DNA from: Burkholderiales bacterium
Lineage (GTDB): Bacteria > Pseudomonadota > Gammaproteobacteria > Burkholderiales > SG8-39
DNA length: 64,000 bases
Assembly (NCBI GenBank): GCA_038903735.1
Contig: JBCKLP010000001.1
Location: 1,767-65,766, forward strand
Direction of reading: 5' to 3'
Of this stretch, positions 3,223-35,811 are shown in pieces (the stretch's first letter is position 1; each line of letters begins with the position of its first letter). Below the pieces are notes generated by a model, which did not search any database, was not told the DNA's origin, and worked only from the letters and a program-made list of their open reading frames with translations. The position numbers and the translations under genes are program-made.

Positions 3223-3312
3223 TTCATCTAAAACTAACTCCGGTTTGAAACCCCGCCCTTTAGGGCGGTGGGAGCCGACCCCGGCCTGAAGGCCTGTCGC
3301 TAATTTCTTGCT
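3223..3312 (-). mobile_element. Family-1 structured repeat, internally deleted copy (MITE/REP-like)
   Basis: Matches both ends of the 163-167-bp copies at 29699-29865 and 33847-34009. The interior between the two internal GGCCTGAAGG repeats is missing. Confidence 0.8.
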
Positions 3313-7692: not shown

Positions 7693-7703
7693 CAGACCCG
7701 CGA

Positions 7704-7737
7704 CGTGGTGCGGCACCAGGTCCGCACCACGATTTTC
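7704..7737 (+). terminator. rho-independent terminator
   Basis: CGTGGTGCGG-CACCAGGT-CCGCACCACG followed by ATTTTC, 12 nt after the Bug stop codon. Confidence 0.6.
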
Positions 7738-7759
7738 AATTCTTACAAGGAATCGCTTA

Positions 7760-8635
7760 ATGGAACATAAGGTCTCTTTTCGCTCCGGCGAGCTGAAGCT
7801 GGAGGGTGTGGTGCATCTGCCGGAAGACATGACACCGGGGGAGAAGCGCCCTGCGATCATGGTGTTGCACGGATTCGGCAATAACAAGGATTCGGCCAAT
7901 TCGATCAATCCCTGCAATCTGCTGACCCGCATGGGCTATGTCACCCTGCGCTTTGATTTCCGCGGTTGCGGGCAAAGCGAAGGCGAGCCCGGCATGGTGA
8001 TTCCCCTGGAGCAGGTGGAAGACACGCAGGCTGCACTGACCTATATGGCAACGCGCCCTGACGTGGATCCGGCGCGCATTGGCGTAGTCGGCTCGTCGTT
8101 CGGTGGTGCAGTGGCAATTTATGCCGGTGGTGTCGACAAGCGTGTTGGCTGCGTCATTTCATCGGGCGGCTGGGGGCACGGCGAACAGAAGTTCCGCAGG
8201 CAGCATCCCACGCCCGAGGCCTGGGCGAAATTCACCAACATGCTGGAGGAGGGCCGCCGCCATCGCCTGCGCACCGGCAAGTCGCTGATGGTGGACCGCT
8301 ACGACATCGTGCCCATCCCCGCGCACCTGCGCAATCATCTCAATCCCACGGCGCACTACCAGTTTCCTGCCGAAGTCGCACAGGCCATGTACAACTTCAA
8401 CGCCGAGGACGTGGTGGCCGGCATGGCGCCGCGACCGCTGCTCCTCTTGCACAGCTCGACCGATTCGGTGACGCCCACCGAGCAATCCTTGCGCCTCTTT
8501 GAGCGCGCGGGCAAGCCCTGTGATCTGCATCTGTTTGCCGAAACCGACCACTTCATGTTCCATGAGGGGAACCAGCGGGTGATGCAGGTGCTGGGCCCCT
8601 GGCTGGAGGAGTTCTTTCCCGTCAAGGCGCGTTGA
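7760..8635 (+). CDS. alpha/beta hydrolase (dienelactone-hydrolase-like size and layout)
   Basis: 291-aa ORF with HGFGNNKDS, nucleophile motif GSSFGG and a C-terminal DH pair (ETDHF). Confidence 0.7.
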   Translation: MEHKVSFRSGELKLEGVVHLPEDMTPGEKRPAIMVLHGFGNNKDSANSINPCNLLTRMGYVTLRFDFRGCGQSEGEPGMVIPLEQVEDTQAALTYMATRPDVDPARIGVVGSSFGGAVAIYAGGVDKRVGCVISSGGWGHGEQKFRRQHPTPEAWAKFTNMLEEGRRHRLRTGKSLMVDRYDIVPIPAHLRNHLNPTAHYQFPAEVAQAMYNFNAEDVVAGMAPRPLLLLHSSTDSVTPTEQSLRLFERAGKPCDLHLFAETDHFMFHEGNQRVMQVLGPWLEEFFPVKAR

Positions 8636-9844: not shown

Positions 9845-10085
9845 CCTTCTCCCAGTGGGAGAAGGGCTTTGCATCCCTCTCCCGTTGGCGACCGGAGGGA
9901 GAAGGGCTTTGCATTTCTCTCCCGGAGGGAAACAGGCTTTTCATCCCTCTCCTGTCGGCGACCGGAGGGAGAAGGGCTTTGCATTCCTCTCCCGCCGGCG
10001 ACCGGAGGGAGAAGGGCTTTTCATCCCTCTCCCGGCGGCGACCGGAGGAAGTCCCAGTGGGAGAGAGGGACCGAGGGTGAGGGGA
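9845..10085. repeat. array of ~6 REP-like imperfect palindromes (~40-bp units)
   Basis: Repeated TCCCTCTCCC-N-GCGACCGGAGGGAGAAGGGCTTTGCA units, each self-complementary, between convergent genes. Confidence 0.85.
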
Positions 10086-28137: not shown

Positions 28138-29703
28138 TCAGTGGCGGAAGTGGCGCACGCCGGTAAACACCATGGCGATGCCCAGTTCGTCGGCCGCGGC
28201 GATGACTTCATTGTCACGCAGGCTGCCGCCGGGTTGAATGATCGCCCTTGCGCCTGCCTGGGCTACCACATCGACACCGTCGCGAAACGGGAAAAATGCA
28301 TCCGAGGCCACGACCGATTTTTCCAGAGACAGCCCGGCATTCTGCGCCTTGATGGCGGCCATGCGCGCACTGTCCACGCGGCTCATCTGGCCGGCGCCCA
28401 CGCCCAGTGTGCGACCTCCGCCGCAAAACACGATGGCATTGGATTTGACGAATTTGGCAACCCGCCAGGCAAACAACAGGTCCGCCATCTGCGCGGCGTC
28501 GGGCGCGAGGCGTGTGACTACACGCAGGTCAGAGGCCGCCAGATTGCGATTGTCGGGTGTTTGCACCAGGAGCCCCCCGCCAACGCGCTTGAGATCGCGC
28601 TCAGCCGAGGCGTCGCCGGCGGCAATTTCGAGCAGACGGACATTGGCCTTGGCCGCCATGATCTCGCGTGCGGCCGGGGAAATTTCCGGCGCGATCGCCA
28701 CTTCGACGAAAAGCCTGGCGAGCGCTTGTGCGGTGTCGGCATCCAGCGGGCGGTTGAAGGCAACGATACCGCCGAATGCCGAGGTCGGATCGCAGGCAAG
28801 CGCCGCCTGATAGGCTTGCAGCGCCGTGCCGCCCACGGCAACGCCGCAGGGGTTGGCATGCTTGACAATGACACAGGCCGGCGTGTCGAAGGTTTTCACG
28901 CATTCCCAGCCAGCATCGGCGTCGGCAATATTGTTGTAGGACAACTCCTTGCCCTGAATCTGCCGATAGTTGGCCAGTGCGCCGGCAAAGGGCTGCGGAT
29001 CCCGATAAAACGCCGCGCTTTGATGGGGGTTCTCCCCGTAGCGCAGGTCCTGCACTTTCGAGAATTGCAGCGTCAGTCGCTCCGGCCATGGCTGACGTTT
29101 TCCGTCCGCATCCACGCTGCTCAGGTAATTGCTGATCGCCGCGTCGTAGGCGGCGGTATGGGTAAATACCTTTTTTGCCAGCTCAAAGCGGCGCGCGGCG
29201 CCGAGCGCGCATTCATTAGCCTGCAGTTCGGCGAGCAGGCTGGCGTAATCATGCGGATCGACAAGCACGGCAACACCCTGATGATTCTTGGCCGCTGCCC
29301 GCAACATGCTCGGCCCGCCAATATCGATATTCTCGATGGCCTCATCGAGGGAGCAGTCGGCACGCGCCACGGTTTTCTCGAAGGGGTAGAGATTCACCAC
29401 CACCAGGTCTATGGGCTCGATGTCGGCTTCGCGTATGGCACGCATGTGCTCGGGCAGGTCGCGCCTGGCAAGCAAGCCGCCATGGATGCGCGGATGCAGG
29501 GTCTTTACCCGGCCGTCCAGCATTTCCGGAAAACCTGTGTAATCGGACACTTCAGTGACGATAATGCCGGACTGTGTGAGTGCCTTCGCGGTGCCGCCCG
29601 TGGAAACAATGGCGACCCCAAGTCCGCTCAGCACGCGGGCAAACTCCACCACGCCGGTTTTATCGGATACGCTGATGAGCGCCCGGCGAATGGTGATGTT
29701 CAT
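28138..29703 (-). CDS. purH: bifunctional AICAR transformylase / IMP cyclohydrolase
   Basis: 521 aa with [11 protein letters not shown] and a C-terminus ending FTGVRHFRH. The start codon lies inside the Family-1 repeat. Confidence 0.95.
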
Positions 29704-29865
29704 CTAAAACTAACTCCGGTTTGAAACCCCGCCCTTTAGGGCGGTGGGAGCCGACCCCGGCCTGAAGGCCGGGGTTTCGGGGGCGGGCGTTTTGGGAGGG
29801 GATGCAAACCCCTTCCAAAACATGTTAGAGCGACAGGCCTGAAGGCTTGTCGCTAATTTCTTGCT
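29699..29865 (-). mobile_element. Family-1 structured repeat, full copy (MITE/REP-like, 167 bp)
   Basis: Near-identical to 33847-34009. It has four or more hairpins and no ORF. It is flanked by GATG(T) direct repeats. Its gene-proximal end is GGAGTTAGTTTTAGATGAA. Confidence 0.85.
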
Positions 29866-32546: not shown

Positions 32547-33851
32547 TCAGGCCGAGCCTACCAGCGCCTCGATTTCCGCGATGCTTTTCGGCGTGGCTGC
32601 GCTCAGAACCTCGTTGCCGGTTTCCGTAACCAGCACATCGTCCTCGATACGCACGCCGATATTCCAGAATTCACGCGGAATGGATTCGTGCGGGCGTATG
32701 TAGCAGCCCGGTTCGACGGTCAGCATCATGCCGGGGCGCAATGGCCGCCATTCGCCGGCGGTTTTGTACTCGCCCGCATCATGCACATCCAGCCCCAGCC
32801 AGTGGCCGGTACGGTGCATGTAAAAGCGCTTGTAGTCCTCTTTCTCCAGAACCTCAGCCAGGCTTCCCTTGCAAAGACCCAGATCGATGAATCCCTGCGC
32901 CAGCGTTTGCACGGCCGCCTCGTGCGCTTCGTTCCAGTGCCTGCCGGGCGCGACCTTGGCAATGGCGGCTGCCTGTGCGGCCAGCACCAGCCCATAAATT
33001 TCCCGCTGTCGCGCCGTGAATTTTCCGCCGATCGGCCAGGTCCGGGTGATGTCCGAGGCATATCCGTCAAGCTCGCACCCGGCATCGACCAGCAACAGTT
33101 CGTTCTCTCGCAGTGCGGCGTTATTGTCGCGATAATGCAGTATGCAGGCATTGGCGCCGCCGGCGACGATGGGCCAGTAAGCGGGGTATTGCGCGCCAAG
33201 GCGTCGAAACTGGTACAGCAGCTCGGCCTCGATCTCGTGCTCGTGCATGCCGGGGCGGGTGGCGCGCATGGCACTGCGATGGCCAGCGTCCGAAATCAGC
33301 GCAGCCCTGCGCATGGTGGCAATCTCGGTCGCGTCTTTGATCAGCCGCATCTCGTCCAGCGGGCCGCGCAGGTCGTGAATCTCAGCCGGCGCAGTGACAC
33401 CGGTGCGCGCTTGCGCGCGCACCTGATTCAGCCAGGACATGATGCGCGCGTCCCAGGCGGGATCGGCGCCGGGCATGTAATGCAGGCAGGGCTGGTCGGC
33501 GAGCAGTTTAGGAAGCATCTCATCGAGCTGCGAAATCGGGTGCGCCTCGTCAAAGCCAAAGCGCTCGCGGGCCGCCTCGGGGCCGAAACGAAAGCCCTCC
33601 CAAAGTTCCCGCTCGACATTCTTGTCGCGGCAGAACAGCAGCGACTTCGGCTCGCTTCCGGCAACCAGCACCAGAACCGCTTCCGGTTCCGGAAACGCCG
33701 TCAGGTAATAGAAATAGCTGTCATAGCGATAGAGGTAATCGCTGTCGCGATTGCGAAGTCGCTCGGGTGAGGTGGGAAGGATGGCCACACCACCCTGCAT
33801 GCTGCTGCAGAGTGCTGCACGGCGTCGTGCCTGTTCGATAGCTGTGTTCAT
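32547..33851 (-). CDS. pepP: Xaa-Pro aminopeptidase
   Basis: 434 aa with metal ligand motifs DAGCELDGYASDITRT and HRTGHWLGLDVHD. The start codon lies inside the Family-1 repeat. Confidence 0.92.
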   Translation of the reverse strand: MNTAIEQARRRAALCSSMQGGVAILPTSPERLRNRDSDYLYRYDSYFYYLTAFPEPEAVLVLVAGSEPKSLLFCRDKNVERELWEGFRFGPEAARERFGFDEAHPISQLDEMLPKLLADQPCLHYMPGADPAWDARIMSWLNQVRAQARTGVTAPAEIHDLRGPLDEMRLIKDATEIATMRRAALISDAGHRSAMRATRPGMHEHEIEAELLYQFRRLGAQYPAYWPIVAGGANACILHYRDNNAALRENELLLVDAGCELDGYASDITRTWPIGGKFTARQREIYGLVLAAQAAAIAKVAPGRHWNEAHEAAVQTLAQGFIDLGLCKGSLAEVLEKEDYKRFYMHRTGHWLGLDVHDAGEYKTAGEWRPLRPGMMLTVEPGCYIRPHESIPREFWNIGVRIEDDVLVTETGNEVLSAATPKSIAEIEALVGSA

Positions 33852-34009
33852 CTAAAACCAACTCCGGTTTGAAACCCCGCCCTTTAGGGCGGTGGGAGCC
33901 GACCCCGGCCTGAAGGCCGGGGTTTCGGGGGCGAGCGTTTTGGGAGGGGATGCAAACCCCTTCCAAAACATGTTGGACAGGCCTGAAGGCTTGTCGCTAA
34001 TTTCTTGCT
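33847..34009 (-). mobile_element. Family-1 structured repeat, full copy (163 bp)
   Basis: Near-identical to 29699-29865. It is flanked by a perfect 6-bp direct repeat GCTGTG (33841-33846 and 34010-34015). Confidence 0.85.
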
Positions 34010-34051
34010 GCTGTGAAGTATAGGGTCAAGCCGTGACGCATGGATTGCCCA

Positions 34052-34723
34052 TTATTTTCGCGCCAAATCCCGATCAAGGTCGGCCAGGCGTTGCGGCGTG
34101 CCGATGTCGTGCCAGGCGCCGCAATAAAGTTCTGCGCTGGCGCGCTCCGCGGCGGCGGCTGTGCGCAACAGCGGCGCCAGCGCGCAGCGCGCGCCGGGCT
34201 CGATCTCCGCAAACAACGCAGGGTCATACAGGCCGATGCCGGAAAAAGTATGCTGCTGCGGGCCTTCATTGCGCAGGAGGGTTCCATCGATCGCGAAATC
34301 GCCTTTCAGCTTATGCGCAGGGTTGGGGACCAGGACCAGGTGAGCGCTGTTAGTGCCGAGCCGATGCCCGCGTAGGCTACCGAAATCGAAATCACAGTAG
34401 ATGTCGCCCGCCACGGCAATGAAAGCCTCATTGCCCAGCAAGGGCATGGCCTTGGCGATGCCACCTGCTGTTTCCAGTGCCTTGCCTTCTGCGGAATAGC
34501 GTATCGATACGCCAAAGCGGCGGCCATCTCCCAGGGCGGCCTCTATTAGTGCACCCAGGTGCGCATGGTTGATAACGATGTCGAGTATCCCGCCCTCGCG
34601 CAGGCGCTCCAGAGTCCAGACGATCAAAGGCTTGCCGCCGGCGGCCAGCAGGGGCTTGGGTGTGGCATCGGACAATGGCCGCATGCGCTCGCCGCGCCCG
34701 GCCGCAAGTATCATCGCTCTCAT
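34052..34723 (-). CDS. murU: nucleotidyltransferase, MurNAc-alpha-1-phosphate uridylyltransferase-like
   Basis: Begins MRAMILAAGRGERMRPLSDATPKPLL. The ATG overlaps the stop of the upstream kinase gene (ATGA). The pairing with amgK next to lptD matches Pseudomonas. Confidence 0.65.
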   Translation of the reverse strand: MRAMILAAGRGERMRPLSDATPKPLLAAGGKPLIVWTLERLREGGILDIVINHAHLGALIEAALGDGRRFGVSIRYSAEGKALETAGGIAKAMPLLGNEAFIAVAGDIYCDFDFGSLRGHRLGTNSAHLVLVPNPAHKLKGDFAIDGTLLRNEGPQQHTFSGIGLYDPALFAEIEPGARCALAPLLRTAAAAERASAELYCGAWHDIGTPQRLADLDRDLARK

Positions 34724-35811
34724 TGGCTGGCAGCGGCGCCGTGCGCTGCGAGTTGATCGAGCAGGCGGGCCAGGCCGCCCAAGTCCCGGTAGCGGCGGCA
34801 CGTGGCGAGAAGATAGCCGAGCACCCTCGGCTGGTCGCCAAGATACCCACGTTTGCCGTCACGAAAGGCAAGGCGGGCAAAGATGCCGACAACCTTGAGT
34901 TGGCGCTGCACGCCCATCCATTCGAAATCCCGGTAAAAAACCGCGAAATCGGCCGCAACCGGGAGGCCGGCGCGGCGCGCTGCCTCCCAATAGCGTACGC
35001 ACCATTCGATGACGAGTGCCTCTTCCCATGCCACATAGGCGTCGCGCAGCAGCGACACCAGATCGTAGGTGAGGGGTCCGTGAACGGCATCCTGGAAATC
35101 CAGAATGCCCGGATTGGGGCTGCAAACCATCAAATTTCGCGAATGATAGTCGCGATGCACGAATACCCTGGGTTGCGCCAGATTGTTGTCGACAATGGCA
35201 GCAAATGCGGCATGTAATACTGCCTGCTGGGCCGAAGAAAGCGTTATTCCCAGTTGTTTTGCCACATACCATTCGGGAAACAAGCGCAACTCGCGCATGA
35301 GAAGGGCGCGATCATAATCGGGCAGATTGCGGGCAAGGTCGGCCTGCTGGATGGTGACCAGGGCCTCCAGCGCATCGCGATAAAGGTGATCGATATCGCC
35401 GCTATGCGATGCACCGGTGTCCTCACGCCACTGGCGCAACTGGTCAAGGTAGGTGCAGCCGCCCAGGTCGGAGAGCAGCAGAAATCCCCTGGCAGTGTCC
35501 TGCGCCCGGATAAGGGGCACGTTGACCCCCGCTTCATGGAGGAGGGCTGCGACGTGCAGGAAGGGTTGGCAATTTTCCTGGGCTGGCGGCGCATCCATGG
35601 CTATCAAGCTGCTGCCGTCGCCGCGGCGGATACGGAAGTAGCGCCGAAAACTGGCATCAGCGGAGGCCGGTTCCAGATCCAATGGCTCCTCCGGCAACTG
35701 TTCCTGCAGCCAATCGCGCAGCAGCGCCAGCCGATCCGGCACGTCCGGCGGGTCCGCCGGCGCAGGCATCATTGCGGATGCGGGGGGCACTGATTCATGA
35801 GCATCGGTCAA
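34720..35811 (-). CDS. amgK: aminoglycoside-phosphotransferase-fold kinase, anomeric MurNAc/GlcNAc kinase-like
   Basis: 363 aa with the catalytic loop HRDYHSRNLMV, followed by ILDFQDA. Confidence 0.6.
   Translation of the reverse strand: MTDAHESVPPASAMMPAPADPPDVPDRLALLRDWLQEQLPEEPLDLEPASADASFRRYFRIRRGDGSSLIAMDAPPAQENCQPFLHVAALLHEAGVNVPLIRAQDTARGFLLLSDLGGCTYLDQLRQWREDTGASHSGDIDHLYRDALEALVTIQQADLARNLPDYDRALLMRELRLFPEWYVAKQLGITLSSAQQAVLHAAFAAIVDNNLAQPRVFVHRDYHSRNLMVCSPNPGILDFQDAVHGPLTYDLVSLLRDAYVAWEEALVIEWCVRYWEAARRAGLPVAADFAVFYRDFEWMGVQRQLKVVGIFARLAFRDGKRGYLGDQPRVLGYLLATCRRYRDLGGLARLLDQLAAHGAAASQ

Follow-up and report, generated by a model that had tools for sequence, protein, structure and literature searches.

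How a repeated, hairpin-rich sequence came to lie directly in front of a start codon, and whether this start codon belongs to the gene or to the repeat, is the question raised by the pepP locus in a 64,000 nt stretch of DNA from a Burkholderiales bacterium (GenBank assembly GCA_038903735.1, contig JBCKLP010000001.1, positions 1,767 to 65,766; the whole stretch is called the window). BLAST and a pattern search found three copies of the repeat in the window, all in the same orientation. The pepP ATG (CAT at 33849-33851, minus strand) opens a PepP open reading frame (ORF) of 434 aa (MNTAIEQARRRAAL; MNTAIEQARRR...), and at the pepP start the gene strand reads GGAGTTGGTTTTAGATGAA. The copy at purH (29699-29865, including TTCAT) is 95.8% identical to the pepP copy, with a 4-bp indel. 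Both copies lie 3′ of a TTCAT at the native gene start. That the geometry of the two copies is the same was already recognized when the locus was first read from its letters only (the sequence-only reading). This reading had proposed an insertion a few codons into the gene, flanked by a 6-bp direct repeat, with the element supplying a new ATG. Our comparison with element-free loci shows that the ATGs of pepP and purH are native, and that the insertion point of the element lies between positions −1 and +1.

At four independent empty sites TTCAT is joined straight to the other flank and nothing is duplicated (slashes mark the junctions). The element-free pepP loci read ...CCTATACTTGCAGGC/ATGAAACCATAC in L120/L121 (also written CCTATACTTGCAGGC/ATGAAACC), ...CCTATACTTGCCGGC/ATGAACGAGTTC in L122 and ...CCTATACTCTTCGC/ATGAACACCTTC in L123, and the window junction, ...CCTATACTTCACAGC/158 nt/ATGAACACAGCT (gene start ATGAACAC), is colinear with them. 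PepP of these loci starts at the same position, with ATGAA. PepP orthologues (72-85% identity) are mostly 434 aa long and share the start position, many of them beginning with MN or MK, and the murU-pepP spacer measures 30-64 nt in element-free relatives versus 200 nt in the window. The fis-purH junction of the same relative (L124/L125) reads ...GAAACCAAC/ATGAACATCACAATACGC without the element, and ATGAACATCACAATACGC encodes a PurH N-terminus (MNITIRR...) that is identical to that of the window over 15 residues. A third empty site was found in another metagenome-assembled genome (MAG; L009, compared to the filled L047: ...GGGTTTCAT/GGCGCT), and the fourth lies in a paralogous repeat (L053, compared to the filled L044: CCGTTCAT/ACTTCGAC).

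Since the target TTCAT is retained and nothing is duplicated at the empty sites, the mobile unit comprises positions 33852-34009 and TTCAT/ATGAA is host sequence. The five bases 33847-33851, which had been counted as part of the element, thus belong to the host; on the minus strand they read ATGAA, the pepP start codon and the first two nucleotides of codon 2. An insertion a few codons into pepP is contradicted by the shared start of the orthologues and by the colinear element-free loci. The view that the element supplies the ATG had to be given up as well, because the element-free fis-purH junction encodes the PurH N-terminus of the window, an observation of the kind that the sequence-only reading itself had named as speaking against its proposal. 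The arithmetic by which removal of the element would fuse pepP in frame to an upstream ATG (MRHGLTLYF/TAIEQ) is correct, but this N-terminus is spurious.

The copies in the window are part of a large family. An exact-pattern scan of species-representative genomes yielded at least 119 loci, which, among the matches listed, are mostly termite-gut MAGs labelled Zoogloeaceae, Accumulibacter or Azonexus, next to Sulfurisoma, Trinickia and Ralstonia MAGs; a metagenome scan yielded 59 further loci. Overall about 200 copies were found in betaproteobacterial genomes and metagenomes, beside unrelated genes, in both orientations and in many cases at contig ends. In the plasmid database the full element matched only plasmid 2 of Polaromonas sp. 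JS666 (L126, NC_007950.1 222-387; 87.5% identity), and queries with the left end (LE) or the right end (RE) alone returned nothing beyond this copy. Polaromonas sp. JS666 is a cultured carrier and offers a route to experiments and to a transposase on its chromosome.

The copies have sharp ends, which on the plus strand read TTCAT/CGTAAAAC...TTCTTGCT/, and 140 unique copies follow the plus-strand pattern TTCAT/CGTAAAACYAACTCCGGTTTGAAACCCCGCCC ... GRCAGCCC-TGAA-GGGCTGYC-GCTAATTTCTTGCT/. The LE motif of the family is CGTAAAACYAACTCCGGTTTGAAACC, and the RE closes with TTGCT, which is kept across subfamilies with different RE tails. The copies are about 60-180 nt long, most often 160-179 nt, and internal hairpin modules are swapped, deleted or duplicated. 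The pentamer in front of the left end is TTCAT in 108 of the 140 unique copies, TTGAT in 9 and GTCAT in 8; conservation falls away sharply at position −6, and none is seen beyond 5 nt. Terminal inverted repeats (TIRs) were not found: the LE tip and the reverse complement of the RE tip agree at 6 of 20 positions, and the sole block common to both tips is the core of the internal palindromic hairpin.

The pepP element is predicted to fold strongly on both strands (z = −3.9 for the gene strand and −5.0 for the plus strand). The LE carries a small hairpin and a GC hairpin. In the RE hairpin 94% of cells are paired and four of the eight pairs show compensatory changes, a covariation that none of 500 shuffles equalled. 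Mismatches in the RE stem, read on the plus strand, were G.T in 13 cases versus A.C in 3, and the plus (top) strand was more stable in 54 of 69 copies (by a mean of −3.7 kcal/mol, Wilcoxon p = 2e-6), statistics whose p-values are indicative only, as the copies are interrelated. The structured strand is the one that reads 5′-TTCAT-3′ ahead of the left end. It also carries a terminator-like site (hairpin plus GCTAATTTCT), and no such site is present on the gene strand. With genes called crudely, the RE-side gene has the same direction as the gene strand of the element in 57 cases versus 17, as would follow if elements in the opposite orientation had polar effects on the genes downstream.

Considering all these data, the feature at pepP is probably one copy of a high-copy, non-coding and non-autonomous mobile element family of 60-180 nt in Rhodocyclales and Burkholderiales. 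This level of confidence refers to the explanation as a whole, comprising the family, the TTCAT target, docking at start codons and mobilization of the IS200/IS605 type. The sequence-only reading had argued against a shared riboswitch or leader and for a mobile element that prefers certain positions or passes a selection filter. This part is confirmed, the rule now being insertion 3′ of TTCAT; the target-site duplication (TSD) and the supplied ATG are refuted.

With regard to the mobilizing enzyme, we lean towards an IS200/IS605-type non-autonomous element, a palindrome-associated transposable element (PATE). A Y1 transposase of the single-strand "peel-and-paste" type would act on the element in trans, with TTCAT as the transposon-adjacent cleavage motif and the terminal TTGCT as the element-borne one. 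This view is based on the 5-nt motif at one end, the terminal TTGCT, the lack of TIRs and TSDs, the subterminal hairpins and the folding asymmetry between the strands. TTCAT is the native target, or transposon-adjacent motif (TAM), of the IS200/IS605 element ISGst5 from Geobacillus stearothermophilus, and protein-less PATEs that share the ends of insertion sequences have been described (Meers et al., bioRxiv 10.1101/2023.03.14.532601). If the link is true, TTCAT-targeting PATEs extend to Betaproteobacteria, and the family offers many natural TAM-adjacent sites for TnpB/IscB biology.

Several observations speak against this assignment. A tblastn search of the element-bearing loci (about 1.24 Mb) with IS200, IS608 and RAYT queries detected neither a Y1 transposase nor a REP-associated tyrosine transposase (RAYT; REP, repetitive extragenic palindrome). 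A gene enclosed by an LE...RE pair was not found either, judged from pairs more than 260 nt apart and from solo LEs and REs with neighbouring ORFs. A lagging-strand bias is usual in IS200/IS605 members, but the orientation of the copies showed no bias relative to local GC skew (70 of 128 on the G-rich strand, p = 0.33), which we count as weak evidence against membership, since GC skew, taken from MAG pieces of 8 kb, reflects the replication strand only poorly. In 14 of 17 loci with several copies both orientations are present, even within single 8-kb loci. The TGAA in GGTTTGAAACCCC could pair with TTCA in a region fixed by the retrieval pattern, and with the region fixed in this way no guide-target covariation was seen: copies flanked by TTGAT or GTCAT have no linked change. 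The tblastn search gave one weak RAYT match (L051), which by its translation is a phenylacetate-CoA-ligase-like gene.

The lack of a detected TnpA and of a replication-strand bias would also fit an element with the same target and another mobilizer, such as an IS91-type rolling-circle enzyme, an RNA-guided IS110-type recombinase or an unknown recombinase. IS91-type elements have a tetranucleotide target beside one end and make no TSD, and the loci also contain IS110-family transposases that interact with the RE hairpin of the element. IS110-type targets comprise about 11-14 nt, however, and conservation ends after 5 nt here; the IS110 copy in L092 interrupts the element and is not bounded by its ends. 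Furthermore, the flanking 5-nt target, the 5-nt terminus, the subterminal hairpins and the folding asymmetry are the signature of IS200/IS605, for which a TTCAT target is documented. We thus consider another mobilizer possible but rather doubtful.

The contacts between IS110 and the element deserve mention in their own right. In L092 (reverse strand, about 380-1480) the RE hairpin of an element contains an inserted transposase gene of the IS110 family (Pfam DEDD_Tnp_IS110 and Transposase_20). In L059 (about 7700-7841, reverse strand) the ORF of an almost identical IS110 transposase (MKYSGIDLHSNN...) is in turn split by an RE-RE palindrome of 48 nt. IS110 and the element appear to target each other.

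The GCTGTG repeat around the pepP copy, which had been taken as a TSD, needs a closer look. GCTGTG is indeed present at 33841-33846 and again at 34010-34015, with a full copy of the element between and the pepP ATG adjoining it. Read on the minus strand, the left hexamer extends from the last base of codon 2 to the second base of codon 4 (AAC ACA GCT). The right one, CACAGC when read on the gene strand, follows immediately on the conserved CCTATACTT, and relatives have GCAGGC, GCCGGC or CTTCGC at this position. In 86 full copies with both flanks, the lengths of suffix/prefix matches corresponded to the shuffled expectation, and a flank match of at least 4 bp was seen for the pepP copy only. 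A TSD that takes in the pentamer was considered and rejected. The repeat is a coincidence of this lineage.

These data also bear on the explanation that an element including ATGAA was inserted a few codons inside pepP, duplicated GCTGTG and rescued the gene by an SD (Shine-Dalgarno) sequence and ATG of its own. GCTGTG does flank 33847-34009, deletion of the element with one repeat yields an in-frame upstream ATG, and the purH copy has a flanking repeat of 4-5 bp, GATG(T). Element-free orthologous sites have ATGAA at the exact position, however, two further empty sites keep TTCAT, the PurH N-terminus is the same with or without the element, PepP orthologues share the start, and none of the 86 copies has a TSD. 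This makes such an event highly improbable, and we are close to certain that the ATG is native, that TTCAT is the target and that no TSD is made.

No Rfam family reached the gathering threshold in the whole window, a permissive scan of 33700-34150 (E up to 10) gave chance-level matches only, and the window scans contained no match to omega-RNA or HEARO. A conserved, immobile cis-regulatory leader, riboswitch or small RNA gene common to pepP and purH, as the strong predicted structure and the terminator-like 3′ end on the plus strand might suggest, can practically be dismissed, given this lack of an Rfam family, the absence of the element from orthologous pepP and purH leaders, and about 200 copies with sharp edges and variable internal modules beside unrelated genes in both orientations. 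Individual copies may have a secondary regulatory role.

On the opposite strand TTCAT reads ATGAA, and genes commonly start with ATG-AAx (Met-Lys/Asn); many copies therefore lie flush with start codons that existed before the insertion. About one third abut the start codons of unrelated genes, including gatB, lepB, nusB, fliE, purH and pepP. Of the 104 TTCAT copies with enough downstream sequence, 43 have a junction ATG that begins an ORF at least 100 codons long, and a codon-usage score rated the ATG frame as coding in at least 28 of those ORFs versus 5 for the other open frame. Nine of ten tested junction ORFs represent full-length, unrelated Pfam families (LepB (signal peptidase I), GatB, MurU-like nucleotidyltransferase, redoxin, GspG, NusB, FliE, M20 peptidase and heptosyltransferase), matched from model position 1-4 and within a few residues of the N-terminus. 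On plasmid 2 of Polaromonas sp. JS666, the RefSeq coding sequence BPRO_RS26270 for an IclR-family regulator begins at the junction ATG. In a limited literature search we found no earlier description of insertion of a PATE or of a miniature inverted-repeat transposable element (MITE) at start codons.

Intragenic positions are strongly under-represented among the occupied sites. A crude census of the same 885 kb with a simple gene caller counted 69 unoccupied ATGAA sites at called gene starts, 595 in the "intergenic" class, which is over-counted, and 1438 within genes. An enrichment at start codons beyond random TTCAT insertion followed by purging could not be demonstrated by this census. Intragenic insertions would be purged. 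Insertions at start codons would survive, as the LE brings an outward-facing GGAG to a distance of 10-11 nt from the junction and the gene strand, being devoid of a terminator, would keep read-through and translation initiation. The 5-nt rule repeatedly puts a transposon exactly between the upstream signals and the first codon, and each docked copy amounts to an experiment of nature that probes to what extent a translation-initiation region can be replaced. Genes that abut the repeat are intact and start like their orthologues, and neither an N-terminal truncation, nor a fusion, nor a TSD should be inferred for them.

For pepP and purH, the insertion would place a GC-rich structured leader of 158-162 nt before the gene. 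No terminator faces the gene, and transcripts coming from murU or fis can consequently still extend into pepP or purH. The upstream regions of pepP and purH in relatives contain no SD. In the window copy GGAG lies 10 nt from the pepP ATG, and in the family consensus the distance is 11 nt; on the gene strand this GGAG can sit in the loop of a predicted AAACC/GGTTT hairpin. We see an even chance that the GGAG of the element is functionally used. The relatives without an SD speak against such a role, as pepP and purH may not need one. It is conceivable, but unlikely, that the family is adapted to start codons as a mobile ribosome-binding cassette, with a common structured leader that would replace native initiation regions. 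If so, dozens of unrelated housekeeping genes would be under a common post-transcriptional input, for which RNA structure, temperature or an antisense plus-strand transcript ending at the RE terminator come into consideration.

The promoter scan called neither a sigma-70-type promoter for a leaderless native pepP nor a promoter within the element that points outwards. The sequence CCTATACT(T), 6-7 nt ahead of the pepP ATG, is conserved in all four lineages (window 34016-34024; L120 1478-1486; L122 and L123). It looks like the −10 box of a putative leaderless transcript, and the scan called nothing there because a −35 element is missing. If the −10 box is real, the insertion turned a leaderless pepP into a gene with a leader of about 165 nt.

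Coordinates of the features are collected in Table 1.

Table 1. The pepP copy, its parts, the neighbouring genes and the two further copies (window coordinates).
Feature	Coordinates	Strand	Basis or remark
Mobile unit at pepP, 158 nt	33852-34009	+	Family boundaries; the empty orthologous sites L120-L123 join the flanks exactly there
TTCAT insertion target, abutting the left end	33847-33851	+	108 of 140 copies; present in four independent empty sites
Left GCTGTG, within the pepP coding sequence	33841-33846	.	Not a TSD
Right GCTGTG, last 6 nt of the ancestral pepP upstream region	34010-34015	.	Alignment with the empty sites L120, L122 and L123
GGAG, SD-like, in the left end of the element	33862-33865	-	10 nt upstream of the pepP ATG; putative function
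Conserved LE block including the small AAACC-N6-GGTTT hairpin	33852-33882	+	No variation across the three window copies
Variable internal hairpin modules	33875-33968	+	Folding; modules exchanged or deleted in family variants
RE: 8-bp covarying hairpin (33976-33995) plus tail GCTAATTTCTTGCT	33976-34009	+	Covariation; terminator-like, plus strand only
pepP, Xaa-Pro aminopeptidase, 434 aa, native start 33851	32547-33851	-	Orthologue comparison
murU-like nucleotidyltransferase gene, upstream of pepP	34052-34726	-	murU-pepP spacer 200 nt
purH sister copy, 162 nt, 3′ of TTCAT 29699-29703 (native purH start ATGAA)	29704-29865	+	
Internally deleted copy, 85 nt, 3′ of TTCAT 3223-3227	3228-3312	+	About 77 internal bases missing

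The top strand of the mobile unit at pepP, which is the plus strand of the window, reads 5′-CTAAAACCAACTCCGGTTTGAAACCCC...GTCGCTAATTTCTTGCT-3′. Its internal modules are CCCCGCCC/GGGCGG (33875-33896), CCCCGGCC-TGAA-GGCCGGGG (33903-33922) and TTTTGGGAGGGG/CCCCTTCCAAAA (33938-33968). The internally deleted copy lies 65 nt upstream of a TctC-family gene with its own GGAGG and ATG, and its junction ATG opens 18 codons only. All three window copies (33852-33854, 29704-29706, 3228-3230) start with CTAAAAC, and the family consensus starts with CGTAAAAC. This 1-nt deletion, found in L085 and L089 as well, shortens the spacing between GGAG and ATG from 11 to 10 nt. GC skew of the plus strand is positive in all eight 8-kb bins of the window (+0.011 to +0.042), and by GC skew the murU-pepP-ubiH-dusB-fis-purH-purD block on the minus strand is on the lagging side. 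At 9860-10030 the window contains a tandem array of units of about 55 nt built on the hairpin GGGAGAAGGGCTTTGCATCCCTCTCCC, which resembles an internal module of the element (GGAAGGGGTTTGCATCCCCTCCC, gene strand); it may have arisen independently as a REP-like repeat and been taken up by the element, or have a common origin with it.

Variant copies were found elsewhere in the family. A subfamily of 87 nt (metagenome loci L137 1112-1200, L145, L149 and L179) combines the family LE with a different RE, AACCGGCC-TGAA-GGCCGGTT-CTGGATAGTTGCT. Only TTGCT is common to this RE and that of the main family, which suggests that TTGCT is a putative element-borne cleavage motif. Free-standing, near-perfect palindromes of 48 nt consist of the RE and its reverse complement (AGCAAGAAATTAGCGGCAGCCC-TTCA-GGGCTGCCGCTAATTTCTTGCT), some of them in tandem (L010 5190-5235; L064 5685-5732 and its reverse-strand copy; L071 560-683); these palindromes represent a miniature, REP-like derivative of the family. 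Chimeric copies (L017 1967-2170, L069 6986-7120) have inverted LEs at both extremities, flanked by TTGAT and ATGAA, and appear to be joined at the common GGTTTG motif. In L016 (1958-2155) a copy follows directly after a TTCAT in the loop of an inverted RE hairpin of the GGCA-TGAA-TGCC subfamily (GGCATTCAT, other strand), and the remainder of the older, targeted copy is gone. The element can thus serve as its own target.

Of the known systems, IS200/IS605 PATEs are compared first. Like these, the element has neither TIRs nor TSDs, inserts 3′ of a fixed left-flank motif of 4-5 nt, carries subterminal hairpins at both ends and one structured strand, and is protein-less and presumably mobilized in trans. 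ISDra2 and IS608, from which the known mechanism derives, use the left-flank motifs TTGAT and TTAC, respectively. Unlike such PATEs (e.g., those related to ISGst5/ISGst1), the element has no cognate TnpA, TnpB or IscB in the element-bearing loci searched, no lagging-strand bias and no Rfam match to omega-RNA-type families, and its host clade is Betaproteobacteria. Neither a GGAG that is part of the element and keeps a set distance to the target, nor the frequent docking at start codons that results, was met with in our limited literature search.

The family resembles REP sequences and bacterial interspersed mosaic elements with RAYT (TnpA-REP) in its high-copy extragenic hairpins, stem covariation and orientation constraints, in the Y1-type enzyme that is presumed for it and in its short palindromic derivatives. 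REPs, in contrast, are single palindromes of 20-40 nt with a conserved tetranucleotide, and the element is an LE...RE unit of 158-160 nt with a flanking 5-nt target; tblastn revealed no RAYT-like ORF in the element-bearing loci. With Correia elements (Neisseria MITEs), ERIC, RUP and Nezha it has in common that small non-coding intergenic repeats alter the expression signals of a downstream gene. Classical MITEs have TIRs and a fixed TSD (TA in the case of Correia), and the element, tested for both, has neither. Rickettsia palindromic elements are likewise hairpin-rich mobile repeats that lie within or at the edge of unrelated housekeeping ORFs, and the genes survive. They are inserted in frame and translated, however, while the element described here does not enter the ORF and lies immediately 5′ of its start codon.

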